This document shows, piece by piece, positions 7,637-23,573 of a DNA stretch of 43,604 bases. Below the pieces are notes generated by a model that was not told where the DNA came from, did not search any database, and saw only the letters and a program-made list of their open reading frames with translations. Numbering within the stretch: the first letter of the stretch is position 1; every line of letters begins with the position of its first letter. The DNA comes from a bacterium (GTDB lineage Bacteria; Arandabacterota; Arandabacteria; Arandabacterales; JALGWA01), in assembly GCA_050125095.1 (NCBI GenBank), contig JASFEA010000008.1, forward strand, positions 1-43,604. The letters run 5' to 3'. The translations under genes were made by a program, and so were the position numbers.

Positions 7637-8800
7637 TTGGAGCTTCGTAGGGAGTGCAGGCATTTTCCGGGTGACCGGCCCTGCCGGTTTCATAAGGAAA
7701 CAGGTGTCATATGCCCGGAATGCTCCCATTTCTCTGAACGCGGCACGAGCGTACTCATAATAAAGCTCGAGGCGCTGGGGGACGTGCTTCGTACGACCTC
7801 GGTCCTGCGGGCGCTACACAGGCGGTATGAGCCCTGCTCCGTGACCTGGGTTACGTCGAGGGCCGCTACCGCCCTTTTCGCGGGGAATGATCTCGTCGAT
7901 GAAGTTCTCGCCGCGTCCGATGCCGCGATTCCAATGCTGCAGGCCAGGGAGTTTGATCTGGTCATCAATCCAGATGCATCTCCCATGTCATGCGCCCTGG
8001 CAAGTATGGCTAGGGGCAGGAGGAAGCAGGGTTTCACTTTGAGTCCCGAGGGCCATGTCGAGCCCCTGGGCGCTGCGGCGGAAGAGTGGTTGCGCCTGGG
8101 TTCCTTCGATCACCTCAAGAAAGAAAACCGGAAAACCTATCAGCGGATACTTCACGATATGTGCGAGCTCGACCCGGCCGGCCAGCATATCGTCCTCAAC
8201 CTTACCGAGAACGAAAGCAGCAATGCCGCCAGCATGAAGCGGCTGCTGGAGCCGGGGTGCCGGGGCCCCATAGTCGGCGTCAACACAGGAGCCGGAGCGC
8301 GCTGGACGCATAAGAAGTGGAGAGTGGACGGGTTCATTGAACTTATCGGCATGCTCCTCGATGAGACCGACGCCGGCGTCATGCTGCTGGGCGGCACGGC
8401 GGAGCGCGAACGGAATGCGAGGATCAAATCCCATTTCGGGTCGAGAGTGGCCGACGCTTGCCAGGAGAATCTGCGTGACTTCATAAGGGAAGTGGGGCTG
8501 TGCGACGTGGTTGTGACGGGCGACACGCTGGCTCTCCATGCGGCGCTGGGCCTCAAGAAGCGCGTGGTCGCGCTCTTCGGCCCCACCTCGCCGTGGGAAG
8601 TGGATGTCTATGACCTGGGCCAGAAGATAGTCGCGGGCCTTGACTGCGTCTGCTGCTACAAAGCCGATTGCGACAATAAGCCCAACTGCATGGACATGAT
8701 AGACGCACGGGAAGTGTTCCGGGCCCTGATCGAGGAGCTGGAGCATGTGCGAAGAGAGGTAATTACTGAGAAGATAATGGTTGGCGAGCCAGGTCGCTGA
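7637..8800 (+). CDS. glycosyltransferase family 9 (heptosyltransferase-like) with Cys-rich termini
   Basis: IIKLEALGDVLRT, VTGDTLALHAA..VALFGPT motifs; TTG start with AAGGAGG inside the csrA end. Confidence 0.85.
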   Translation: MELRRECRHFPGDRPCRFHKETGVICPECSHFSERGTSVLIIKLEALGDVLRTTSVLRALHRRYEPCSVTWVTSRAATALFAGNDLVDEVLAASDAAIPMLQAREFDLVINPDASPMSCALASMARGRRKQGFTLSPEGHVEPLGAAAEEWLRLGSFDHLKKENRKTYQRILHDMCELDPAGQHIVLNLTENESSNAASMKRLLEPGCRGPIVGVNTGAGARWTHKKWRVDGFIELIGMLLDETDAGVMLLGGTAERERNARIKSHFGSRVADACQENLRDFIREVGLCDVVVTGDTLALHAALGLKKRVVALFGPTSPWEVDVYDLGQKIVAGLDCVCCYKADCDNKPNCMDMIDAREVFRALIEELEHVRREVITEKIMVGEPGR

Positions 8801-8938
8801 CATGAGACGCGTGGTCGACGCACGCTGACTCCAACGTGAACCTAAGACTCGCCAACCTTCTGATTAAGCCGACTTGCCGAAGCCCCAGATTCCGAAGACG
8901 CCGGGGCTGCGGAGGAACCGCAGAAGGAGACCCCAGGG

Positions 8939-9943
8939 ATGGAGTTTACAGGAGAGAGGCTGGTACCCGGCGTCGATGGCCTCGAGGAGCTCTACACCGA
9001 GCACATGAGCCGCTATCTGCTGGCGTCCGCGCTTTCCGAGGGAAAGCGGGTTCTGGACGTCGGCTGCGGCTGCGGCTACGGCACGCATCTCCTGGCCAGG
9101 GCCGGGGCGGCCGAAGTCCTGGGCGTCGACATCTCCCCCGAAGCCGTCGACTTCGCCGGCGGCCGCTATTCCCGCGAGGGCCTGTCTTACCGTGTCATGG
9201 ATGCGAGGCGGCTCGATCTGGAATGCTGCTTCGACCTCGTCACCTGCTTCGAGCTCATCGAGCATGTCGCCGAGGACGAGGCCGTGGTTCGGTCGATATC
9301 AGGTCTGCTCGCCGAGGGCGGCATATGTCTCATCTCCACCCCGAATGCCGAGACCTACGTGGCCGGCGGTGAGGGAGGAAGCAATCCGTACCACTGCCGC
9401 GAGTACAGTTCAGACGAGTTCGAGGCCCTCCTGAAAACCGCGTTCGGCGGCGTCACAATGCTGGAACAGCGCTGGACCGACGGCATCTTGATGAGCCCCC
9501 GGTCCGCGGCGCAGGGCCCGCGGAAGGGGCCTGGAATAGCCGCGCTTCTTCCCGATGAAACGGGAGCCGAACCGGGGCAGGGGTCATTCGGGCCTCCCCC
9601 GTTTTTCATTGCCGTATGCGCAAAGAGTGAGGCCACGGTGGTTCCGGAGATCCTGACGCGGCCTTTCGGGGCAATAACGGCGGGCAGCCGCTACCGGAAA
9701 CTCAAGGAGGAGTTTGACAGGCGCGGCCGCTGGGCGACATCGCTTGATGAGGAGGTGCGCTCCAGAGATGCCCTGGTCAGCCGGTTACGCGACGAGAAAG
9801 CCAAGCTGGAGGCGGAATTCGACGAACGCGGCCGCTGGGCCCAGGGCCTCGACCGCAAGGTGCGGGAAAAGGATGAACTGATAAGCAAATTGATGGCCGA
9901 GAACGAACGCCTCAAAAGGGCGGCCGTGATGGCCGAGAGGTAG
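8939..9943 (+). CDS. class I SAM-dependent methyltransferase with C-terminal coiled coil
   Basis: FTGER..H..RY, VLDVGCGCGYG, FELIEHV, ISTPN; heptad-rich C-terminus. Confidence 0.85.
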   Translation: MEFTGERLVPGVDGLEELYTEHMSRYLLASALSEGKRVLDVGCGCGYGTHLLARAGAAEVLGVDISPEAVDFAGGRYSREGLSYRVMDARRLDLECCFDLVTCFELIEHVAEDEAVVRSISGLLAEGGICLISTPNAETYVAGGEGGSNPYHCREYSSDEFEALLKTAFGGVTMLEQRWTDGILMSPRSAAQGPRKGPGIAALLPDETGAEPGQGSFGPPPFFIAVCAKSEATVVPEILTRPFGAITAGSRYRKLKEEFDRRGRWATSLDEEVRSRDALVSRLRDEKAKLEAEFDERGRWAQGLDRKVREKDELISKLMAENERLKRAAVMAER

Positions 9944-9961
9944 AACATCACGAGGGGTGGC

Positions 9962-12900
9962 ATGGACAGGAAATCCGTAATATCGATTCTTGCGCTCAAC
10001 AACCTCGACCTGACCAGGCAGTGCATAGAGAGCATATTCGAGAACACAGAGGGTGACTACAGGATCTGCGTCTTCAACCAGGGGTCGGATGACGGGACGG
10101 AGGAGTACCTGGACGGGCTCGGGGACAGGATAGACTGCATACACAGCCCGGAGAACGTCGGCTTCATCACTGGAAACAACAAGATCATGGAGAAGTATCC
10201 CGACGACGATATCGTTCTCCTGAACAACGACACCCTGGTCAAGAAGGGCTGGCTCAAGTCCCTGAAGGAATGCGCCTACAGTGACCCCGCAATCGGCATT
10301 GTCGGCGCCAAGCTCGTGTATCCAAACGGCCTGCTTCAGGAAGCCGGAGGCGAGATCTTCCGTGACGGCTCGGGCCGCAATATAGGCAAATTCGATGACC
10401 CTGACCGGTATATATATAATATAAGAAGAGACGTTGATTACTGCTCCGGGGCCTGCCTTTATCTCAAGCGGGACGCCCTGAGCCAGATCGGGTATCTTGA
10501 CGAGGTCTTCAGCCCGGCCTACTGGGAGGATACAGATATCTGCTTCCGGGCGCGGGCCGCAGGGTTCCGCGTGGTCTACGAGCCTGCCGCCGCCGTTGTC
10601 CATCTGGAGGGCGCCACGGCGGGTTCGCCTGAGAAGCGGACGCTGTCCGGCCGGCTGCAGGCCAAGAACAAGCCCCTCTTCATGGAGAGGTGGGCGAAGG
10701 AGCTCGAGCGGCATCGCGAAAACGTCTTCGAGGTAAAGGGGAGTCCGGGCAGGGAGAAGATCCTCATTATTCAGCCCTTCCTGCCCATGTACGACAGGGC
10801 AGCCGGGGAGAAACGCTGGTTTCACACCCTCAAGATCCTGGCGAAGCACTACGATGTCGTCCTCCTTGCGAGAAACGGGACGGGTCAGCTCAAGTACATA
10901 AACGAAGTCGAGAAGATGGGCGTGACGGTTTTCCACACCGACCAGTCCAGGCTTCAGAACATGGGCTGCGATCTCAAGGGGCCCATCTGGATTGATTTCC
11001 CGCTGCTACTCAAGTCGAATGACTTCAAGGCCGTTATCGTAGGCTTCTATCATGTAGCGCACCAGTACTGGAGGGACATCAGGCAGCACTCGCCTCACAG
11101 CGTCTTCATCATAGACTCATTCGATGTCTGCTATGTGCGACAGAAGAGAAAGGCGCTACTGACCGGCGATCCTGCGAAGCTCTGGGAAGCCGAGGAGACC
11201 AAGCGGCTGGAACTGGCGATGTACCGCCGGGCGGATATGGTCCTGACCGTCACCGGGAGAGACCGTGCGACGCTCCTCGAAGAGGCACCTGATCTCAATG
11301 TCGGCATCTCGACCGACATTCATCCGGTTACAGAGGATGAGGGGGAAGCCGAACGGCGCGATATAGTCTTTGTCGGCAACTTCAACCACGATCCCAATGA
11401 AGACGCAGTCGTCTACTTCATGGATGAGATCTGGCCGCTGGTCAAGCAACGTGTCCCGGATCTCAAGTTTTACATAGTGGGGAACGCCCCTACCGATAGA
11501 GTCGAGGCCTATGCCTCGGATGACGTTGTCGTTACAGGCTTCGTCCCCGAAGTGATTCCCTACCTCCTCAGGGCCAAGGCTTTTGTGGTACCGCTTCGTT
11601 ATGGCGCCGGTCTTAAAGGCAAGATAGGAGAGGCTCTGTCCTGCGGCATTCCTGTTGTAACGACATCGATCGGCGCGGAGGGTATGGACCTGGTTCACCG
11701 GAGGAGCGCTTTGATCGCCGACGAGCCGGATGCTTTCGCGGACATGGTCGCGGAAGTGTGCTCGGACAATGACCTCTGGAATACCCTGTCAAGCGAGGGC
11801 AGGGCACTGGCCCGCAGGAACTACTCCTATGAAACGGTGGAGCGCTATTGGAAAGAGGTGTTCGATTTCATCGCCGCCGGCGTTCCCGAAAAGCGCCATA
11901 TAGGGGCCGGGAGCGTGGAAGGCGGCTACACCAGGCCGCGTCCGGTGCCCGAGATCTGTCCCGATGTCGGCATAGTCATTCCGGTGCACAACCACCTGGG
12001 GGCGACTCGCAACTGCTGGTTGAGCATCAAGAAGAATACCAGCCGGCCTTACCAGATTGTGATTGTGGACAATGGTTCCGCCGAACAGGTCGCCTATGAA
12101 GCCGATCAGAACAACATCGAAGTCATACGTAACGAGAGCAACACTGGTTTTGCGCATGCATGCAACCAGGGCATAAGGGCGACTCATGGCGAGTACGTAG
12201 TAATTCTGAACAACGACACGATCTTGCCGCCCGGCTGGCTCGACAGGCTTATGTGGCATATGGAGAATGATGAAAGTGTCGGAATAGTCGGTCCGTCTAC
12301 GAGCTTCGCCTCCACGGTTCAGCAGATTCCTGTTGCTTATAAGAACGAGCGCGGCCTGTACGAGTTCAACGAGGAAGTCTACGAGAAGAACCGGCATAAG
12401 AGCATGGAAGTGGACAAGGTCGTCGGGGTTTGTATGCTCGTCAGGAGAGAGATGCTCGACGAGATCGGCCTGTTCGACACCCGATTCGGCATCGGCAACT
12501 TCGAAGACGATGATATCTGTTTGAGGGCGAGACTAGCGGGCTACAAGGTCCTGTGGGCCAGAGACGCGTTCGTTCACCATGAGGGAAGCAAGACCTTCCG
12601 CACCATCGATGTCGACTACGGCAAGCTCATGGAGGAGAACAGAGAGAAGTTCTCGGCAAAGTGGGGGCAGGTTGCAGGCGCCGCCGGATTATGCCCGGGA
12701 GCCGCATCCTCTGCGGCCCCTGAGAGCCGGACCGGGGAGGTAACGCAGCCCGCGCCGCCGATTTCGGGGCCGCCGGTCGTACTGCTGGCCCGCGGTGACG
12801 GCAAGGCGCTTGATGAGACCATATATAGCCTGAAGCACGCTTCCCCGGGACCGATTCACATCGCAGGCAATCCGGCAGAGACGCGGGACGGCGTCAGCAT

Positions 12901-13975
12901 AATCGAGAATGTCGACGGCGGGTCGACGGCGGCGGCGGTCATTGAGTTCGCCCGCAAGTGCGAAGATGACCTGATCTTCTTCGTCTCGGAGGGGGCGGTC
13001 GTCACGCCGGACTGGGCGACTCCCCTCGAGAGCCTGATGAAGCTGGATGACGTCGGTTGCGCGGTGTCGGCCACAAACGCCGGCTGGGGCCTCCAGCAGA
13101 TGAGCCCGGCATACGGCAAGGTCGGCAAGCCGCTCGTGAAGTTCGCCAGGCGCAACTCGCTTGAGCACCGGGGACGGGTCGAGAATCTGGAGGCGGCTCA
13201 TCCCGCGGCATTTGCAATAGAGAAGAGGGTACTGCTCGAGGCCGGTCTGGCCGATGAGTTCGATTCGGATGCCCTGTTCGTGGACCTCCAGAGGAGAGTC
13301 AGGGATCTCGGTCTGCGCCTCGTCTGCGCCAGGGACTCCTATGTTCACTTCGAGAGGGCCGATGATGCCGCGGCGGAAGCCGAGCGAGGCGCCGCAGTCA
13401 AGCTCCTGAGCGCCGGGTCGCAGGCCGCGGGCGGCAACATCGACTCGGCTATGTCCGATGTCGACGGCGCCATCGCACTCAAGCCCGATTATGCGGAGGC
13501 GCATTACCAGAGAGGCCTGCTGCTCGTTCTCTCAGGAAGGGCTGACGAAGCCCGGGCCGAATTCGAGCAAGTCGCGAATATCAATCCACGGGACTCAAGG
13601 GCCCATAACAACCTCGGCTGCATTCTGTTCGAGGCGGGGATGGCAGAGGACGCCGAGAGAGCATTCTCGAGAGCCGTGGACGTTGATCCCGGCAACTGGG
13701 AGGCCAAGAAGAACCTGGCCGACCTCTACCTGTCGAGGGGCATGGCGGAGGATGGTATGAATCTCTACCACCAGCTCCTCAAGGAGCACAATGACCGTCC
13801 CGAGATCCATACATCGGTCGCGCAGGTGTTCGCGTCCCTGGGCGATACCAAAACGGCCGCCGCGCTGCTCAGGTCGGCACAGAGGCTCGCTCCGGGGGAC
13901 GAGACGATAAGGACGGCGCTGGAAGCGGTCGAAGCCGCGGCCGGAGCCGGGGAGGACAACCAGGTTGAATACTGA
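9962..13975 (+). CDS. multi-domain glycosyltransferase (GT2 - GT4 - GT2 - degenerate GT2 - TPR)
   Basis: Two LNNDT/EDxD GT2 modules, GT4 VPLRYGAGLKGKIGEALSCGIPVVTTSIGAEG, C-terminal TPRs (PDYAEAHYQRG, DSRAHNNLG). Confidence 0.9.
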   Translation: MDRKSVISILALNNLDLTRQCIESIFENTEGDYRICVFNQGSDDGTEEYLDGLGDRIDCIHSPENVGFITGNNKIMEKYPDDDIVLLNNDTLVKKGWLKSLKECAYSDPAIGIVGAKLVYPNGLLQEAGGEIFRDGSGRNIGKFDDPDRYIYNIRRDVDYCSGACLYLKRDALSQIGYLDEVFSPAYWEDTDICFRARAAGFRVVYEPAAAVVHLEGATAGSPEKRTLSGRLQAKNKPLFMERWAKELERHRENVFEVKGSPGREKILIIQPFLPMYDRAAGEKRWFHTLKILAKHYDVVLLARNGTGQLKYINEVEKMGVTVFHTDQSRLQNMGCDLKGPIWIDFPLLLKSNDFKAVIVGFYHVAHQYWRDIRQHSPHSVFIIDSFDVCYVRQKRKALLTGDPAKLWEAEETKRLELAMYRRADMVLTVTGRDRATLLEEAPDLNVGISTDIHPVTEDEGEAERRDIVFVGNFNHDPNEDAVVYFMDEIWPLVKQRVPDLKFYIVGNAPTDRVEAYASDDVVVTGFVPEVIPYLLRAKAFVVPLRYGAGLKGKIGEALSCGIPVVTTSIGAEGMDLVHRRSALIADEPDAFADMVAEVCSDNDLWNTLSSEGRALARRNYSYETVERYWKEVFDFIAAGVPEKRHIGAGSVEGGYTRPRPVPEICPDVGIVIPVHNHLGATRNCWLSIKKNTSRPYQIVIVDNGSAEQVAYEADQNNIEVIRNESNTGFAHACNQGIRATHGEYVVILNNDTILPPGWLDRLMWHMENDESVGIVGPSTSFASTVQQIPVAYKNERGLYEFNEEVYEKNRHKSMEVDKVVGVCMLVRREMLDEIGLFDTRFGIGNFEDDDICLRARLAGYKVLWARDAFVHHEGSKTFRTIDVDYGKLMEENREKFSAKWGQVAGAAGLCPGAASSAAPESRTGEVTQPAPPISGPPVVLLARGDGKALDETIYSLKHASPGPIHIAGNPAETRDGVSIIENVDGGSTAAAVIEFARKCEDDLIFFVSEGAVVTPDWATPLESLMKLDDVGCAVSATNAGWGLQQMSPAYGKVGKPLVKFARRNSLEHRGRVENLEAAHPAAFAIEKRVLLEAGLADEFDSDALFVDLQRRVRDLGLRLVCARDSYVHFERADDAAAEAERGAAVKLLSAGSQAAGGNIDSAMSDVDGAIALKPDYAEAHYQRGLLLVLSGRADEARAEFEQVANINPRDSRAHNNLGCILFEAGMAEDAERAFSRAVDVDPGNWEAKKNLADLYLSRGMAEDGMNLYHQLLKEHNDRPEIHTSVAQVFASLGDTKTAAALLRSAQRLAPGDETIRTALEAVEAAAGAGEDNQVEY

Positions 13976-15422
13976 TGCGAAGCGGCTCACCGTCTGCATG
14001 ATAGTGAAGAATGAGGAAGCGAACCTGCCCAGGGCGCTCGATAGCGTGAAGGGTGTGGCCGATGAGATCGTAGTCGTCGATACGGGGTCAAGCGACGGCA
14101 CGAAGGCCCTGGCGGAGTCAATGGGGGCCTCTGTGTTCGAGCACCCCTGGAAAAACGACTTCGCCGATGCCAAGAACGCCGCTCTGGAGAGGGCGACGGG
14201 CCGGTGGATTCTCTTTCTGGACGCCGACGAGTACGTCTGCCCCGAGTCCCGGGACAGAATCCTGTCGGCGATCTCCGGCGAGGCCGACGCCTACTTCGTC
14301 AGAATAGAGAGCGAAGTGAAGTCGGGCGCCGGCCGGACTTTCGTCAGTCTCCACCAGCGTCTCTTCAGGAACAACCTGGGAATACGATACGAGGGCGCGG
14401 TTCACGAACAGGTGGACTCGTCGCTGAAGCGGACAGGCGCGCATGTCAGGAACTCGGAGATCGTCCTCAAGCATACGGGCTACGGCCTCGACGCGGCGGG
14501 GATGAAGCCGAAGTTGGAGCGCAACCTCCATATCCTCAGACAGGTGCTGCTTGAGAATCCCGACGATGCGGTGTCGCTCTTTCATCTGGGGGAGACGCTT
14601 TCGCTTCTGGGGACATACGACGCGGCAGTCGACGCCTACGAAAGGGCGCTTGAGGTGGGGGGGCTTCCAGACGGGATAAAACCCGTGGCGATTCAGAATA
14701 TGGCGTCCTCGATGATAAAGATGCGGAGGTATGATGAGGCAATGCGGCACATCAGGAGGGCGCAGGAGCTCGATCCATCGATGCTCAGCGCGCACCTCCT
14801 CATGGGTTCAGCCCTATTCGGCCAGAGGAAGTTCGAAAGGGCCGAGAAGGAGATACTTACCTATATAACAAGAGCGAACGATTCGCGCAGACGCGCCACA
14901 CATATCCTGGGATTCGAAGCCGATATTCCGGCCGCCCTCGTGCTTGTCGCCAAGTGCCGGTTGGCGCGCGGGGATCTGGAGGGAGCCGGTCTGGCTCTGA
15001 AGGACGCGGTCAGAACGGATGGGGACTATCCCGACAGTCACATACTATTGGGCAGGATCGCCTTCGAGAAGATGGACTTCGCAAGAGCGGTGCCCCACTT
15101 CGAGAAGGCGCTCGAGATGCTGCCGCGCGAAGAACTCCTGTACTTCGAGCTCTCCAAGTCCTACATGGCAGCGGGGGCATATGACAGGGCGGAAGAGACA
15201 CTGGAGCGGGCCCTCGGCGAGGATCTCGAGAGCGCGGGGCTCTTGAGATGCCTCGGCATAGTCCGGGTCAAGCGGCAGAATCTCGAGGGGGCGATTAGGG
15301 CTTTCGAACGTGCCCACAGCCTCGACCCGGCCGACCGGGAGGCGCCGAGAATGCTGGCGGGTCTTCACCACAAGCTGGGGGATCCGGAGGCCGCCAAGAA
15401 ATATCTCATAATCTGCAAATAG
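13965..15422 (+). CDS. GT2 glycosyltransferase with TPR repeats (flagellin glycosyltransferase-like)
   Basis: CMIVKNEE, VDTGSSDGT, LDADE, GAVHEQ, HTGY followed by TPRs; directly upstream of flagellin. Confidence 0.85.
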   Translation: MNTDAKRLTVCMIVKNEEANLPRALDSVKGVADEIVVVDTGSSDGTKALAESMGASVFEHPWKNDFADAKNAALERATGRWILFLDADEYVCPESRDRILSAISGEADAYFVRIESEVKSGAGRTFVSLHQRLFRNNLGIRYEGAVHEQVDSSLKRTGAHVRNSEIVLKHTGYGLDAAGMKPKLERNLHILRQVLLENPDDAVSLFHLGETLSLLGTYDAAVDAYERALEVGGLPDGIKPVAIQNMASSMIKMRRYDEAMRHIRRAQELDPSMLSAHLLMGSALFGQRKFERAEKEILTYITRANDSRRRATHILGFEADIPAALVLVAKCRLARGDLEGAGLALKDAVRTDGDYPDSHILLGRIAFEKMDFARAVPHFEKALEMLPREELLYFELSKSYMAAGAYDRAEETLERALGEDLESAGLLRCLGIVRVKRQNLEGAIRAFERAHSLDPADREAPRMLAGLHHKLGDPEAAKKYLIICK

Positions 15423-18492: not shown

Positions 18493-18804
18493 GTGACTGT
18501 TTTGAGAATACCGGGTGACGTCGGAATAGTGCCTCCCGTCGGTCCCGACGGAAAGCCGCGCGGGAGTGACCGCACCGGGAAGGACAATACGCGCGGAAGT
18601 CCCGACATCATCGAGTTTTCATCAAGCGGCAAGAGGCTCGGCGCCGACTTCGCATCCGAGAGTGCCGGGGTGGCCGGGAGAAGTGGCACATTCGATACGG
18701 ATGCGCGCGCGACGGTCGAGCAGCGCATGGCGAGCGGGTACTACGAGAGAAAAGAGGTTCTCGAAGCGATCGCCGACATCGTGCTCGAGCAGTTCGGAAT
18801 ATAG
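18493..18804 (+). CDS. FlgM-like anti-sigma28 factor
   Basis: DIIEFS and VEQRMASGYY...EAIADIVL resemble the FlgM C-terminus; size and context fit. Confidence 0.6.
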   Translation: MTVLRIPGDVGIVPPVGPDGKPRGSDRTGKDNTRGSPDIIEFSSSGKRLGADFASESAGVAGRSGTFDTDARATVEQRMASGYYERKEVLEAIADIVLEQFGI

Positions 18805-18851: not shown

Positions 18852-19064
18852 TTGATAGCCCTGACTCAACTTAACGGCGCTTGCGTCTACGTCAACTCCA
18901 GCCTGATAGAGACGTTTGAGCGCACTCCTGACACCGTCATAACCCTGACTACCGGCAGGAAGCTCATCGTCAGGGAGTCACCCGAAGAAGTCATCGACAA
19001 GGTGATGGAGTTTGCCGCCAAGGTATCTGAGTCCTCGGTCTGCGCACGAGAGGGAGTCGCCTGA
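18852..19064 (+). CDS. flbD: FlbD/SwrD family flagellar protein
   Basis: MIALTQLNG..VN..LIETFERTPDTVITLTTGRKLIVRES; upstream of motA. Confidence 0.92.
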   Translation: MIALTQLNGACVYVNSSLIETFERTPDTVITLTTGRKLIVRESPEEVIDKVMEFAAKVSESSVCAREGVA

Positions 19065-19846
19065 TGGATGTCACCACCATTGCCGGGATTGTGGCAGGCG
19101 CGGGCATTCTCTTTCTCGCGATCTTCCAGGGCGGGGGGATCGGCATCTTCATCAACATACCCTCACTCATGATTACCGCCGGTGGAACGCTGGCGGCGAC
19201 GCTCATCAACTACCCGCTCGGCGATATCTTCAGGGTCATGATGGTCACCAAGAGCGCTTTCCTTCACAAGATGGACTCTCCCGAGAACACCATCAAGACC
19301 ATCGTCACCTTTGCTGAAAAGGCGAGGCGCGAAGGCCTGCTGGCCCTCGAGAAGGACCTCCACGACGTGGACGACGACTTTCTCAAGGGAGGCCTGGAGC
19401 TTGCAATCGACGGGATCGATCCTGATCTCGTCGCCTCCATGCTGAGGATGGAGCTCGACTTTCTCATGGAAAGGCATAAACGCGGGCAGGGTATGTTCAA
19501 GGCGATGGGCAAGTTCGCCCCCGCTTTCGGTATGCTCGGGACCCTGATTGGACTTATTCAGATGCTCAGGTCGATTGAGGACCCTTCGAGCATCGGTCCG
19601 GGTATGGCCGTCGCGCTGATCACGACTTTCTATGGAACCCTCATCGCCAACCTCATTTGTATTCCTCTTGCGGGCAAGCTGGAGATGATCTCGGAGCACG
19701 AGGTCATGGTTAAGGAGATCGTCATAGAGGGCATACGATCCATTCAGTCGGGCGACAGCCCCAGGGTGGTCGAGCGCAAGCTCAAGTCCTTCCTGGCCCC
19801 CAAGATGAGAGAGGCCCTTACTGCGGGGAAGGCGGGAGGTGAGTAG
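19064..19846 (+). CDS. motA: flagellar stator MotA (PomA/MotP-like)
   Basis: ARREGLLALE, APAFGMLGTLIGLIQML, MAVALITTFYG. Confidence 0.95.
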   Translation: MDVTTIAGIVAGAGILFLAIFQGGGIGIFINIPSLMITAGGTLAATLINYPLGDIFRVMMVTKSAFLHKMDSPENTIKTIVTFAEKARREGLLALEKDLHDVDDDFLKGGLELAIDGIDPDLVASMLRMELDFLMERHKRGQGMFKAMGKFAPAFGMLGTLIGLIQMLRSIEDPSSIGPGMAVALITTFYGTLIANLICIPLAGKLEMISEHEVMVKEIVIEGIRSIQSGDSPRVVERKLKSFLAPKMREALTAGKAGGE

Positions 19847-20604
19847 TGCCTCCACGAAAGCAGCAACAGGAAGAGGGCGCGAGCTGGCTCACGACCTTCG
19901 GTGACATGGTAACGCTGCTGTTCACTTTCTTCGTTCTCGTCTACTCGTTCTCATCATTCGAGCCCGGAAACTGGGAAACCGCAATCGGCGCCGTAAGGGG
20001 CGCGCTGTCGGTGGTCCCCGGGAACATGGGAAACCGCGTGGTGCCCGGCGGCGGGACGGGGCCCTTCACGGGACACACGGGCGTCTTCCCGCTCTTCGTC
20101 ACCGACCTCTCGGGCAGAGAGGCGAGGCTTATGGCGGTCAGAGAGAAGCTCGCCGAGCTCGGTGTGGCGGACAGCGCCGGCGCGGTCGAGGGCGTGCAGG
20201 GCGTCGAGCTGGTCGAGACCAAGTCAGGCTTCAAGTTCCGGATATCGACGAGCCTCCTTTTCGAGAGAGGCAGCGCGGAGGTTAAGAAGTCGGCATACGG
20301 TCTTCTCGAGGCCATCGCAGAGGCCTCGACCAAAGGGCAGGCCACGGTCACGGTTGCGGGCCACACATGCGATATACCGATAGAGACGCCCGAATTCCCG
20401 TCCAACTGGGAGCTCTCCGCGAGGAGGTCCACCAACGTACTGAGAATAATAAGAGACAATGCAGGGCCCGGCACCCAATTCATAGCTCTGGCCAGGGCCG
20501 AATACAGCCCGATCTGCGACAACGATACCGAAGAGAACCGCGCCAGGAACCGGCGCGTCGAAGTGCTTTTCGATCTGGAGGGAGGGTCACCGCTTGGGTA
20601 CTGA
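19846..20604 (+). CDS. motB: flagellar stator MotB paralog 1 (Asp intact)
   Basis: WLTTFGDMVTLLFTFFVL TM helix; OmpA-like GHT..SNWELSARR..NRRVE. Confidence 0.92.
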   Translation: MPPRKQQQEEGASWLTTFGDMVTLLFTFFVLVYSFSSFEPGNWETAIGAVRGALSVVPGNMGNRVVPGGGTGPFTGHTGVFPLFVTDLSGREARLMAVREKLAELGVADSAGAVEGVQGVELVETKSGFKFRISTSLLFERGSAEVKKSAYGLLEAIAEASTKGQATVTVAGHTCDIPIETPEFPSNWELSARRSTNVLRIIRDNAGPGTQFIALARAEYSPICDNDTEENRARNRRVEVLFDLEGGSPLGY

Positions 20605-21367
20605 TGGGCCCGTGCGCAAGAAGAAGCAGGATGATGACGACGACGCTTTCATGATGTCCTATACCGCCCTTATGATCCTCCTTCTCACGTTCATGATCGT
20701 CATGGTCACCATGTCGACCTTCAAGGAGCCGAGGTTCAGGAGCGCGATAGGGTCTGTGCGGGGAGCGCTGTCGTTCCTGCCGTTTGCCGGCGCCGAAGAC
20801 ATGGCTATGACCGGCCATGCGGGCATTCTCCCCGAGGAGTCTCTGGCGAAAGCGCTGCGCGAGGAGAGCCTTGCGGAGAAGGAATACAGGGAGGCAGTCC
20901 AGGACGTCAAGGATAGAGCCGGCATGCCCGAGTTCGAGAGCCTCGAGGTGATCGAAACCCGCGACGGTCTGCATGTCAGGATATGGGACGCGCTCATATT
21001 CCCCAGCGGGAACGCCGTGATACATCCGGAGGTGCTTCCCGTACTGGACGTGATAGCGAAGATCGCGGAGCTCCGCCCCGGCAAGGTGTCAGTGGTCGGG
21101 CACACATGCGACCTTCCCATATCGACGGCGGAGTTCCCTTCGAACTGGGACCTGTCGATGGCCCGGGCCATAAGCGTGGTGAAGTATCTCGGCACGAAGG
21201 GCGTGCCGCCGGACTCGCTTTATGCATATGGTGTCGCCGATACCAGGCCCCTCATGCCGAACACTTCCCGGGAGTCTCGGCAGAAGAACAGGCGCGTCGA
21301 GATATACATAAGCAACGCTCTCAGAAGAAGAGAGAGAGAAGCCGCGGCGACGGAGGAGCAGTCGTGA
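20594..21367 (+). CDS. motB: MotB paralog 2 (conserved Asp replaced by Ala)
   Basis: TM FMMSYTALMILLLTFMIVM; OmpA-like GHT..SNWDLSMARA..NRRVE. Confidence 0.85.
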   Translation: MGTDGPVRKKKQDDDDDAFMMSYTALMILLLTFMIVMVTMSTFKEPRFRSAIGSVRGALSFLPFAGAEDMAMTGHAGILPEESLAKALREESLAEKEYREAVQDVKDRAGMPEFESLEVIETRDGLHVRIWDALIFPSGNAVIHPEVLPVLDVIAKIAELRPGKVSVVGHTCDLPISTAEFPSNWDLSMARAISVVKYLGTKGVPPDSLYAYGVADTRPLMPNTSRESRQKNRRVEIYISNALRRREREAAATEEQS

Positions 21368-21470
21368 GCGCAATCATAATATCGTCAATCACTGAAGCTG
21401 GAATGCGGGTGTGCGGGGAACGGGAGTCTACAAGCTTATACATAACGCTCAAAGGGCTGGGAGTTCCGAA

Positions 21471-23573
21471 ATGAAGACATTGCATACGGGAAACCGGATC
21501 AACATTCTGGAGACTCTGTTCGATCCGGTTTACAGGGCAAAGTTTGTCGATCTTATGAAAAGCCGGCTTCACAGGTACGGGGCCGAACTCAAGGGCGACT
21601 CGCACACAATAGAGACCGAGGACACCAAGAACCTAGTCAGGATTGTCCTGAACGACATAGCTGTGGCCATACAGGAGGGGCTGTCGGCCGAGCAGGTTCT
21701 CGTTGCCCTGTTCACGGAAGCAGATAGTGAGTCCTACGTGACGGGTACGGCCGGGATGTCGTCCGATCAGGATGAGCGGGTGCTACTCATGGCAATCGAC
21801 TCGGCCATGGAGGAGACCATCCCGGCGGATTTCAGCGTGGCCGCCGTCGAGTACAGGACTGAGGGCGACGGCTCCGGCGTCGCCACGCAGGCGCCGGTTG
21901 CCGTGGTCGTGCCGATTATCGTGGGCGACAGAGTGAGCGGAGTCATCGCGGCGGCCCACGGCGGCGATCCCGAATTCGCGACGCGCGAAGACGGGAGGAT
22001 CCAGGTGCTCGGGCACGTTGTAGGCGGGGTCATCCATGAAATCGGCAACCAGTTTGCAAACGAGGAACGGCTGCGATCGCTGGCCTATGGCCTGTCCGCA
22101 GCGCTTGACGCGAGGGACCCCAAGACACGCGGCCACTCCGACAGGGTCGCCATGATAGCGATGGCAATCATCAATGAGATGGAGAAGACCGACGACTCTC
22201 CCGTCTACCAGGAACTCAGGAGCTGCATGAGGCTTGCCGGCCTGCTTCACGACATCGGCAAGGTGGGCATTCCCGACAGCATACTCCTCAAGGCAGGCGA
22301 GCTCACAAAGGAAGAATACAATTTCATCAAGAGGCATCCGCTGATAGGAGCCGAAATCGTGAACGCCTGCACCGGCCTCAAGGAGCTGGTGCCGGGAGTG
22401 CTCTACCATCATGAGCACTATGACGGCTCGGGATACCCCTTCGGCCTCAAGGGCGAAGACATACCGCTTCTCGCGAGAGTGATTGCTCTTGCCGACTCCT
22501 TCGATGCCATTACATCGGACCGCCCGTTCCGGGCCGCTTCCTCGCATGAGGAAGCCATCTCCATATTGACCGGTTATCCGTCCAAGAACTTCGACCAGAA
22601 GGTCCTAAAGGCGCTTGTGAGCGCGCACGAGAATGGGACGTTGACATTTGTGAGAATCCCCGCCAGGTCGGGCTCGGTCGGCGAGCCGGACAGCGAAATC
22701 GATGATACGTACAGCGACGCCCTCAAGTCGCTGCCCACACTGCCGCCGGTGCTCACCGTCGTGAACAAGATGCTGGCCGACGAGGACGCGCCGCTCAGGG
22801 AAGTGGCCCAGGCGCTGTCGTCGGACGAGGGCCTTACGAGCCGAGTGCTCAGGCTGGTTAACTCGGCGTATTACGGTCTTCCCCGGCGCATATCGACGGT
22901 GCCTCTTGCGATAACGATACTCGGGGCGAAAGCCGTGAAGAACCAGGTCGTGAACATAGCTTTCGCCGACCTCATGAACTCGCTGGGCGGCGGGCGCAAG
23001 GAATACGCCCTGCTCTGGCGACATGCAATCAGGACGGGGGCCTGGGCCAAGGCCATAGCCGCCAAGTTCGGGAGCGCAGACGAGGAAGAGGCGTTTACCG
23101 CCGGCCTGGTTCATGACATAGGTAAGGCCCTGGCTCTCCGCCTCAAGCCCGCCGATTACGGCAAGCTGGTTCTCGAGAGCGCCCGCAGCGGCAAGGACCT
23201 TAGAGGAGTTGAAGAACAGGTGCTCGGATTCGACCATGCCAGGATCGGCGCCTGGGCTGCCGAGAAGTGGAAACTGCCCCAGACGCTCGTCGGGTCCATA
23301 AGATGGCATCACGAGCCCGAGGGCGTGCGCGACGAGGAAGAGATCATCAGGAAGCTCGTTGAAACGGTCCATCTGGCGGACATACTCGCCAAGGCCTCGG
23401 AGCAGGATCCCCCTGACCACTCCGGAACCCTGATCGAAGAGGCGAGCCCCTGGATTCTCGAGGAACTGGGCGAGGCCTTCATGGCCGAGATAGAGCTCAT
23501 GTCTTCGGACGTCGTAGAGCAGGAGAAGGTGCTCGAGGAGACATTCGAGGAAAGCGGGGTCGGAGTCGTCTAG
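21471..23573 (+). CDS. HD-GYP phosphodiesterase fused to HDOD domain, N-terminal GAF-like region
   Basis: TRGHSDRV, HDIGK, HHEHYDGSGYP; then LPTLP..VLRLVNSAYYG..GLVHDIGK..WKLP..IRWHH. Confidence 0.88.
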   Translation: MKTLHTGNRINILETLFDPVYRAKFVDLMKSRLHRYGAELKGDSHTIETEDTKNLVRIVLNDIAVAIQEGLSAEQVLVALFTEADSESYVTGTAGMSSDQDERVLLMAIDSAMEETIPADFSVAAVEYRTEGDGSGVATQAPVAVVVPIIVGDRVSGVIAAAHGGDPEFATREDGRIQVLGHVVGGVIHEIGNQFANEERLRSLAYGLSAALDARDPKTRGHSDRVAMIAMAIINEMEKTDDSPVYQELRSCMRLAGLLHDIGKVGIPDSILLKAGELTKEEYNFIKRHPLIGAEIVNACTGLKELVPGVLYHHEHYDGSGYPFGLKGEDIPLLARVIALADSFDAITSDRPFRAASSHEEAISILTGYPSKNFDQKVLKALVSAHENGTLTFVRIPARSGSVGEPDSEIDDTYSDALKSLPTLPPVLTVVNKMLADEDAPLREVAQALSSDEGLTSRVLRLVNSAYYGLPRRISTVPLAITILGAKAVKNQVVNIAFADLMNSLGGGRKEYALLWRHAIRTGAWAKAIAAKFGSADEEEAFTAGLVHDIGKALALRLKPADYGKLVLESARSGKDLRGVEEQVLGFDHARIGAWAAEKWKLPQTLVGSIRWHHEPEGVRDEEEIIRKLVETVHLADILAKASEQDPPDHSGTLIEEASPWILEELGEAFMAEIELMSSDVVEQEKVLEETFEESGVGVV

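Follow-up and report, generated by a model that had tools for sequence, protein, structure and literature searches.

The window analyzed here, a 43,604-nucleotide (nt) stretch of bacterial DNA (contig JASFEA010000008.1 of assembly GCA_050125095.1, phylum Arandabacterota), carries a single gene for the flagellar stator protein MotA followed by two tandem genes for its partner MotB, here termed motB1 and motB2. By comparison with known stators, MotB2 is a B-subunit paralogue that appears to be kept by selection: its transmembrane helix, plug, and peptidoglycan-binding domain are retained, and the ion-binding aspartate (Asp) of the helix is replaced by a small neutral residue. The first-pass annotation of this DNA had described one MotA with two tandem MotBs, the second without the Asp, and this was confirmed, with Ala25 (GCC, 20666-20668) aligning with the Asp of three solved chains. 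Our tentative suggestion is that MotB2 most likely serves as the second axle helix beside MotB1 in the MotA pentamer, so that the stator would be MotA5:MotB1:MotB2 and have one ion-binding carboxylate rather than two. The features that bear on this suggestion are as follows.

18852-19064, plus strand: flbD, first gene of the coupled string, PF06289 FlbD match of 91.1 bits; overlaps the motA start by 1 nt.
19064-19846, plus strand: motA, 260 amino acids (aa), PF01618 match of 104.7 bits.
19846-20604, plus strand: motB1, 252 aa, GTG start; canonical stator B subunit with MotB_plug and OmpA domains.
19903-19905, plus strand: GAC codon of MotB1 Asp20, read from the sequence.
20577-20586, plus strand: Shine-Dalgarno-like GGAGGGAGGG run within the motB1 end, 5′ of the motB2 TTG; read from the sequence, with a presumed function.
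20594-21367, plus strand: motB2, 257 aa, TTG start; Asp-less MotB paralogue with MotB_plug and OmpA domains.
20618-20644, plus strand: KKKQDDDDD patch, MotB2 residues 9-17, basic then acidic, at the cytoplasmic end of the helix.
20666-20668, plus strand: GCC codon of MotB2 Ala25, the position of the ion-binding Asp in BLASTP and HMMER alignments.
20999-21292, plus strand: OmpA-like peptidoglycan-binding domain of MotB2, residues 136-233, by PF00691 match.
21411-23573, plus strand: HD-GYP and HDOD gene, the conserved downstream neighbor, with PF13487 (129.9 bits) and PF08668 (202.3 bits) matches.

Both MotB proteins were found to pass the Pfam cut-offs for MotB_plug (PF13677, 24 bits) and OmpA (PF00691, 27.2 bits), with MotB_plug scores of 51.2 bits for MotB1 and 36.4 bits for MotB2 (residues 9-58) and OmpA scores of 50.9 and 51.7 bits, respectively. 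The two proteins are 33% identical by BLASTP; in this pairwise alignment SWLTTFGDMVTLL aligned with AFMMSYTALMILL and MotB2 Ala25 was positioned opposite MotB1 Asp20. When examined by HMMER, MotB2 aligned over its full length with solved stator B subunits, and Ala25 was opposite the transmembrane Asp of the chains 8bri_F (PomB), 6ysl_A, and 6ysf_A. Hence, of the properties by which a stator B subunit is recognized, MotB2 has (i) the helix and plug; (ii) the OmpA-like domain; and (iii) adjacency to motA in a flagellar cluster; the property it lacks is the conserved Asp, which all 15 aligned MotB1 orthologues have (Asp20 in MotB1). The intact OmpA-like domain, the overlap with motB1, and the KKKQDDDDD patch that the first-pass annotation had pointed out were likewise borne out (51.7 bits, 11 nt, and residues 9-17, respectively). 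As a separate observation, both MotBs read GHTCD(I/L)PI where the solved PomB/MotB chains read GHTDN.P; that is, Cys is at the usual Asp of this OmpA-like motif and the Asp is displaced by one residue. A MotB1 orthologue (locus L045) retains GHTDN.

The genes flbD-motA-motB1-motB2 form a tight plus-strand string in which successive open reading frame (ORF) calls overlap by 1, 1, and 11 nt. These overlaps, together with the Shine-Dalgarno-like run before motB2, would suit the synthesis of equal amounts of product from motB1 and motB2, and the motB2 orthologues were found to start with ATG or TTG at the same position. A scan for promoters and terminators returned about as many hits as shuffled sequence does, and within the operon no terminator was called on the plus strand. 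For motA, the nearest NCBIfam models were PomA/MotP, with scores under their cut-offs. The stator genes sit among other flagellar genes. Pfam matches in the window identified flgA, flgH, flgI, flgK, flagellin genes, and a gene for a rod-binding lytic transglycosylase, whereas fliS and fliD were named from their ORF translations and from homologues in related loci; the flg, flagellin, and fli genes lie upstream of the stator string.

A sequencing error or a pseudogene has practically no probability as the explanation of Ala25. The GCC codon is one base off GAC, which would favor an error. The codon was compared with independent data. Four public runs, with no RNA run among those listed, contained at least half of the sampled words of this DNA; one (X1) was the possible source sample and was left out as non-independent, and the others (X2, X3, and X4) were from different studies. 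The contigs of X2 and X3 covered the whole stretch with 7 differences each, and the X4 contig covered 20477-20682 with 0 differences. The differing positions were limited to 20109, 20184, 20888, 20929, 21043, 21052, 21244, and 21278; none was detected at 20666-20668 in the contigs of these three runs, including position 20667, which the first-pass annotation had singled out for a check. An error at Ala25 was thus ruled out, as the independent contigs agree and 78 of 78 homologues are without the Asp, and a decaying pseudogene was ruled out by the intact frame and the purifying selection on motB2.

The residue at the Asp column was counted by hidden Markov model in the 120 proteins listed by a MotB2 homologue search. 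The close group (P0001-P0069, 47-100% identity) had 41 Ala and 27 Ser at this column, with 1 fragment without the helix, and a sister group of about 40% identity (n = 10) had Ala in 8, Gly in 1, and Ser in 1; the other listed hits included 39 with Asp and 1 with no match. The Asp is absent from 68/68 close and 10/10 sister proteins, compared with its presence in 122 and absence from 13 of the 135 other MotB-type cluster representatives in which the helix could be read. Judged from these alignments, the Asp-less state of the homologues is far beyond chance. Across 24 aligned members, nine helix residues were invariant (F19, L26, M27, L29, L30, L31, F33, M34, and V38), as were much of the plug and an SNW.LS..RA motif of the OmpA-like domain. 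The subfamily is narrow, since among 1.84 billion cluster representatives it consisted of 2 full-length proteins (391 and 334 bits) and 2 fragments (P0096 and P0101), with Asp-bearing proteins next in score: the next full-length representative, P0121 at 228 bits, still has the Asp, and ordinary MotBs appear from about 200 bits down.

Conservation was found to extend to the gene pair. In each of 15 genome loci (the window and 14 others), a single motA and the MotB1 gene are directly followed by an Asp-less MotB2, and the MotB1 Asp is visible in 14; at the other locus (L046) the N-terminus was not shown by the ORF caller. The same trio was found in 19 of 19 metagenome loci, with the MotB1 Asp visible in 16 and the other 3 cut by the contig end. 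These loci are partly redundant, in that the L069 MotB2 is 100% identical to that of the window, the MotB1 and MotB2 N-termini of L079 equal those of L037, and those of L080 and L081 equal those of L041. In a sample of 18 genomes of the phylum, the pair was present in nine, each with exactly two MotB-type matches, and one member without the other was found in none. Two of the remaining genomes (G006 and G009) have a single MotB of another type, and seven (completeness 57-98%) gave no MotB match at an E-value of 1e-20 or better. The genome of the window (91% complete) has two MotB_plug matches and one strong MotA match, plus one weak hit (E-value 1.7e-5). Related records are labelled Candidatus Eisenbacteria, Candidatus Krumholzibacteriia, and, once, Gemmatimonadetes.

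The ratio of nonsynonymous to synonymous substitution rates (dN/dS), derived from three genomes of the genus, was 0.176, 0.078, and 0.112 for MotB2, 0.124, 0.128, and 0.095 for MotB1, and 0.030, 0.036, and 0.063 for MotA, all of them rough values because dS is near or above 1 and close to saturation. The most constrained part of MotB2 is its helix and plug (residues 18-62; dN 0.020-0.030, dS 0.82-1.31). On these estimates, MotB2 is under apparent purifying selection comparable to that on MotB1. The first-pass annotation had proposed collecting related motA-motB-motB loci; in those now assembled the second copy is consistently Asp-less, no homologue of the close or sister group with a readable helix has Asp at that position, and dN/dS among the three genomes of the genus is about 0.08-0.18. 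Its argument for real specialization, as opposed to a one-base slip, also holds: purifying selection has kept the loss of the Asp, the pairing of the two genes, and the lone motA throughout a deep lineage. When 79 MotB-type proteins were placed in a maximum-likelihood tree, MotB2 and MotB1 clades were recovered with support values of 97 and 99, both within a clade of support 95. The genome groupings in the two clades are largely alike, and the duplication would therefore be older than the split of the two groups, the pair having been co-inherited since. The best tree puts Asp-less proteins at three separate positions and requires three state changes, which suggests convergent, independent origins of the Asp loss. 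Convergence is suggested rather than shown because the approximately unbiased (AU) test did not reject one clade of all Asp-less proteins (P = 0.176), nor the two main groups together (P = 0.194).

A working model for MotA5:MotB1:MotB2 can be proposed on this basis. MotB2 would be made from the same coupled message as the sole MotA and the Asp-bearing MotB1, and MotB1 and MotB2 would co-assemble as a heterodimer inside the MotA pentamer. Co-assembly is suggested because (i) constraint on MotB2 is highest in its helix and plug, as expected of a helix packed inside MotA; (ii) coupled translation suits a 1:1 ratio; and (iii) neither MotB occurs alone in the lineage. Since a neutral Ala would behave as if it were always protonated, gating would be left to the MotB1 site alone, and ions would gate just one in two of the 36-degree steps of MotA; such a one-site unit may need roughly half as many ions per turn and stall at a lower torque. 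An in situ structure is described as showing non-equivalence between the two copies of MotB within a stator (bioRxiv 10.64898/2026.10.14.759253), which makes a fixed division of labor conceivable. With rather more doubt than certainty, we consider that these bacteria may swim with a natural MotA5:MotB1:MotB2 stator bearing a single carboxylate, in which one Asp is enough for torque and the second axle subunit is a neutral partner.

A fold prediction of MotB1 with MotB2 is in keeping with this arrangement. With each protein given its own alignment and MotA not in the model, the pair scored 0.82, compared with 0.02 for the best control, thereby passing a mark that 58 of 80 solved complexes and 2 of 110 mismatched pairs attain. 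The runs share at least 92% of contacts, the partner has a predicted local distance difference test score (pLDDT) of at least 72, and the predicted interface runs along the helices (MotB1 15-37 and MotB2 17-42) and the OmpA-like domains. No charge or size complementarity favoring a heterodimer was seen by eye at this predicted interface.

Several points weigh against the one-site heterodimer. The fold pass is to be expected from the likeness of the pair to solved MotB/PomB homodimers; the model shows that likeness, and a preference of MotB1 for MotB2 over itself is not thereby shown. Substitutions of Asp32 in Escherichia coli MotB abolish function and are dominant-negative, and a unit with one Asp may therefore not turn. 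The dN/dS ratios are rough, as noted above. Moreover, no result separates the MotB1:MotB2 heterodimer from a mixture of MotA5:MotB1(2) and MotA5:MotB2(2). Thus, the heterodimer with one conducting site put forward in the first-pass annotation fits the coupling, the unsplit pair, the constrained helices, and the fold pass, none of which distinguishes it from two kinds of homodimer.

The main rival is that MotB2 forms a non-conducting unit of its own, MotA5:MotB2(2), acting as a brake, placeholder, or passive anchor whose share would tune motor output, perhaps under control of the downstream HDOD/HD-GYP gene. We regard this as unlikely. In its favor, a single MotA serves two MotBs, the plug and peptidoglycan-binding domain of MotB2 are intact, motB2 is followed by an HDOD gene in all 13 genome loci, and in most of the metagenome loci, where the contig leaves room for one, and the dominant-negative effect of the E. 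coli Asp32 mutants is that expected of competing dead units. On the other hand, translational coupling to motB1 leaves no obvious means to vary the share of MotB2, and a dead competitor made at all times would carry a cost, yet no split of the pair was found in 34 loci. The fold pass is compatible with homodimers too. The brake or anchor subunit, which the first-pass annotation had also raised, stays as the less probable alternative to the heterodimer.

Two further explanations dispense with either MotA or the usual ion site. MotB2 might act without MotA as a membrane-anchored, wall-binding scaffold round the motor, similar to OmpA-like accessory ring proteins, and the conserved OmpA-like domain and location in a flagellar gene cluster would suit this role. 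We find it improbable, as MotB2 keeps a MotB_plug match and a full-length alignment to stator B subunits, and the constraint on its helix and plug (dN 0.02-0.03, with 9 invariant helix residues in 24 sequences) exceeds the needs of a simple membrane anchor. There is also a very small chance that MotB2 conducts via a relocated carboxylate, using acidic residues 8 positions before Ala25 at the cytoplasmic helix end, and forms conducting units of its own. An acidic residue is present 8 positions upstream of the Asp column in 60/68 close homologues and 9/10 of the sister group, where this residue is Glu and a further Glu stands 5 positions upstream in 10/10. The group of the window, however, has Met at the latter position in 68/68, leaving its helix core without a carboxylate, and a residue two helical turns away would lie, judging from the alignments, at the membrane edge rather than at the site of solved stators.

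The downstream gene differs between groups of the lineage. In the window group, a 720-aa protein joins an N-terminal HD-GYP domain to the HDOD domain, and its gene overlaps the motB2 end in several loci; in the sister group, the gene is HDOD-only and 290-355 aa in length. The HDOD genes after motB2 in four related loci are located as follows.

L040, 4638-5537: HDOD gene after motB2.
L041, 4747-5811: HDOD gene after motB2.
L043, 4768-5742: HDOD gene after motB2.
L044, 4717-5586: HDOD gene after motB2.

The gene next to motB2 on the downstream side otherwise always encodes an HDOD domain; the exception was L075, in which the nearest HDOD-type gene is about 1.9 kb downstream. Elsewhere in the window, a 103-aa ORF between fliD and flbD (18493-18804) has no Pfam match; it was found at the same position in closer related loci (26-215 bits by phmmer) and was undetected in most sister-group loci. 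From the hook-associated genes to the second flagellin gene (7637-15422), the window encodes a family 9 glycosyltransferase, a methyltransferase, a 1337-aa ORF (9962-13975), and a family 2 glycosyltransferase with tetratricopeptide repeats, a stretch which may be a flagellin modification island.

In current models of the 5:2 stator, the two MotB aspartates alternate in ion binding at each 36-degree step. A natural unit with one Asp, or a conserved dead twin sharing the sole MotA, makes the need for both ion sites testable, along with the effect of a neutral second site on torque, speed, and ion use. The proteins are small and the operon is compact, and the approach of Aquifex stator chimeras in E. 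coli, as described in PMC4525482, offers a ready assay. If the one-site heterodimer is true, recurrence of the Asp-less state, which the best MotB tree shows at three or more points (with a single origin not rejected), would imply a widespread, undescribed class of one-site stators with a different ion cost per turn. Databases label the Asp-less proteins simply as MotB or OmpA family, and genome-based predictions of motility and ion use therefore take them for ordinary stators. A literature search found no paper describing an Asp-less MotB paralogue, and the terms aspartate, D32, Asp32, and heterodimer are absent from the main text of a 2025 survey of MotAB evolution (PMC12505986), the supplements of which may list such sequences.

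Asp-less MotBs were also found in other lineages. Among the neighbors of P0133, one of the 13 Asp-less cluster representatives, 108 of 115 are Asp-less (Ser 34, Ala 7, and Gly 67), some of them labelled as proteins of Deltaproteobacteria, Thermodesulfobacteriota, Desulfobacterales, and Nitrospirota metagenome-assembled genomes (MAGs). The gene orders at loci from unrelated genomes vary as follows.

L089 (genome G264) and L012 (genome G023): motA-B(Ser)-B(Asp), with the Asp-less copy first, unlike the window.
L110 (genome G055): motA-B(Asp)-B(Asn), in the order of the window.
L020 (genome G031): B(Asp)-B(Ala) adjacent, in the order of the window, with no motA match in the locus.
L014: Aquifex-like motA with two motB genes, the Asp kept in both.

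Genome G023 (L012 and L115) has in addition, on a different contig, a second motA accompanied by an Asp-less MotB; its relatives are all distant and gave no further Asp-less examples. A search with the Gly-type P0302 over 401 genomes detected no close orthologue (best 42% identity), and the returned loci held two further tandems. On the best tree, the Asp-less MotBs of unrelated loci are in clades other than that of the MotB2 of the window, a single origin again not being rejected. Separately, P0293-P0391 form a large MotB_plug group, some labelled as Desulfobacterales or Deltaproteobacteria MAG proteins, in which Gly occupies the Asp column and a Glu is conserved five residues before it (W-E-I-V-Y-S-G-F); in these proteins the carboxylate may have moved within the helix.

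When compared with the canonical MotA5MotB2 and PomA5PomB2 stators, the system of the window likewise has one MotA-type gene, a B subunit with an N-terminal helix, plug, and OmpA-like domain, and a location in a flagellar cluster, and MotB1 is a normal member of this type. It differs in having two unlike B genes per A gene, one of which has Ala, Ser, or Gly where every aligned solved B subunit has Asp. MotY-type accessory proteins are secreted OmpA-like proteins with neither a stator helix nor a plug; MotB2 differs from these by its MotB_plug match and full-length alignment to stator B subunits. With regard to the Zorya ZorAB system, MotA matches no PADLOC family, the MotBs have only weak ZorB matches that are mostly over the OmpA-like domain, and the gene context is flagellar. 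The motA-motB1-motB2 operon of Aquifex aeolicus, as described by Takekawa et al. (2015, PMC4525482), resembles the present one in having one motA followed by two motB genes. The Aquifex MotBs are described there as 97% identical in their N-terminal and helix regions and different in their periplasmic parts, whereas the pair of the window is 33% identical overall and diverges in the helix itself, including the loss of the Asp, so that near-identical Asp-bearing helices are not found here. The AglR5-AglQ-AglS gliding motor of Myxococcus, for which a heterodimeric axle is predicted (PMC11761067), is similar in that a single A protein, which forms the pentamer, is combined with two unlike axle proteins of the B type, and the genes of the window likewise encode two unlike B proteins for one A protein. 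It differs in that AglQ and AglS are TolR-like and without the MotB plug or OmpA domain, the motor is non-flagellar, and the heterodimer there is itself a prediction. Overall, the Asp-less second MotB is a variant of a known stator type that recurs in other lineages.

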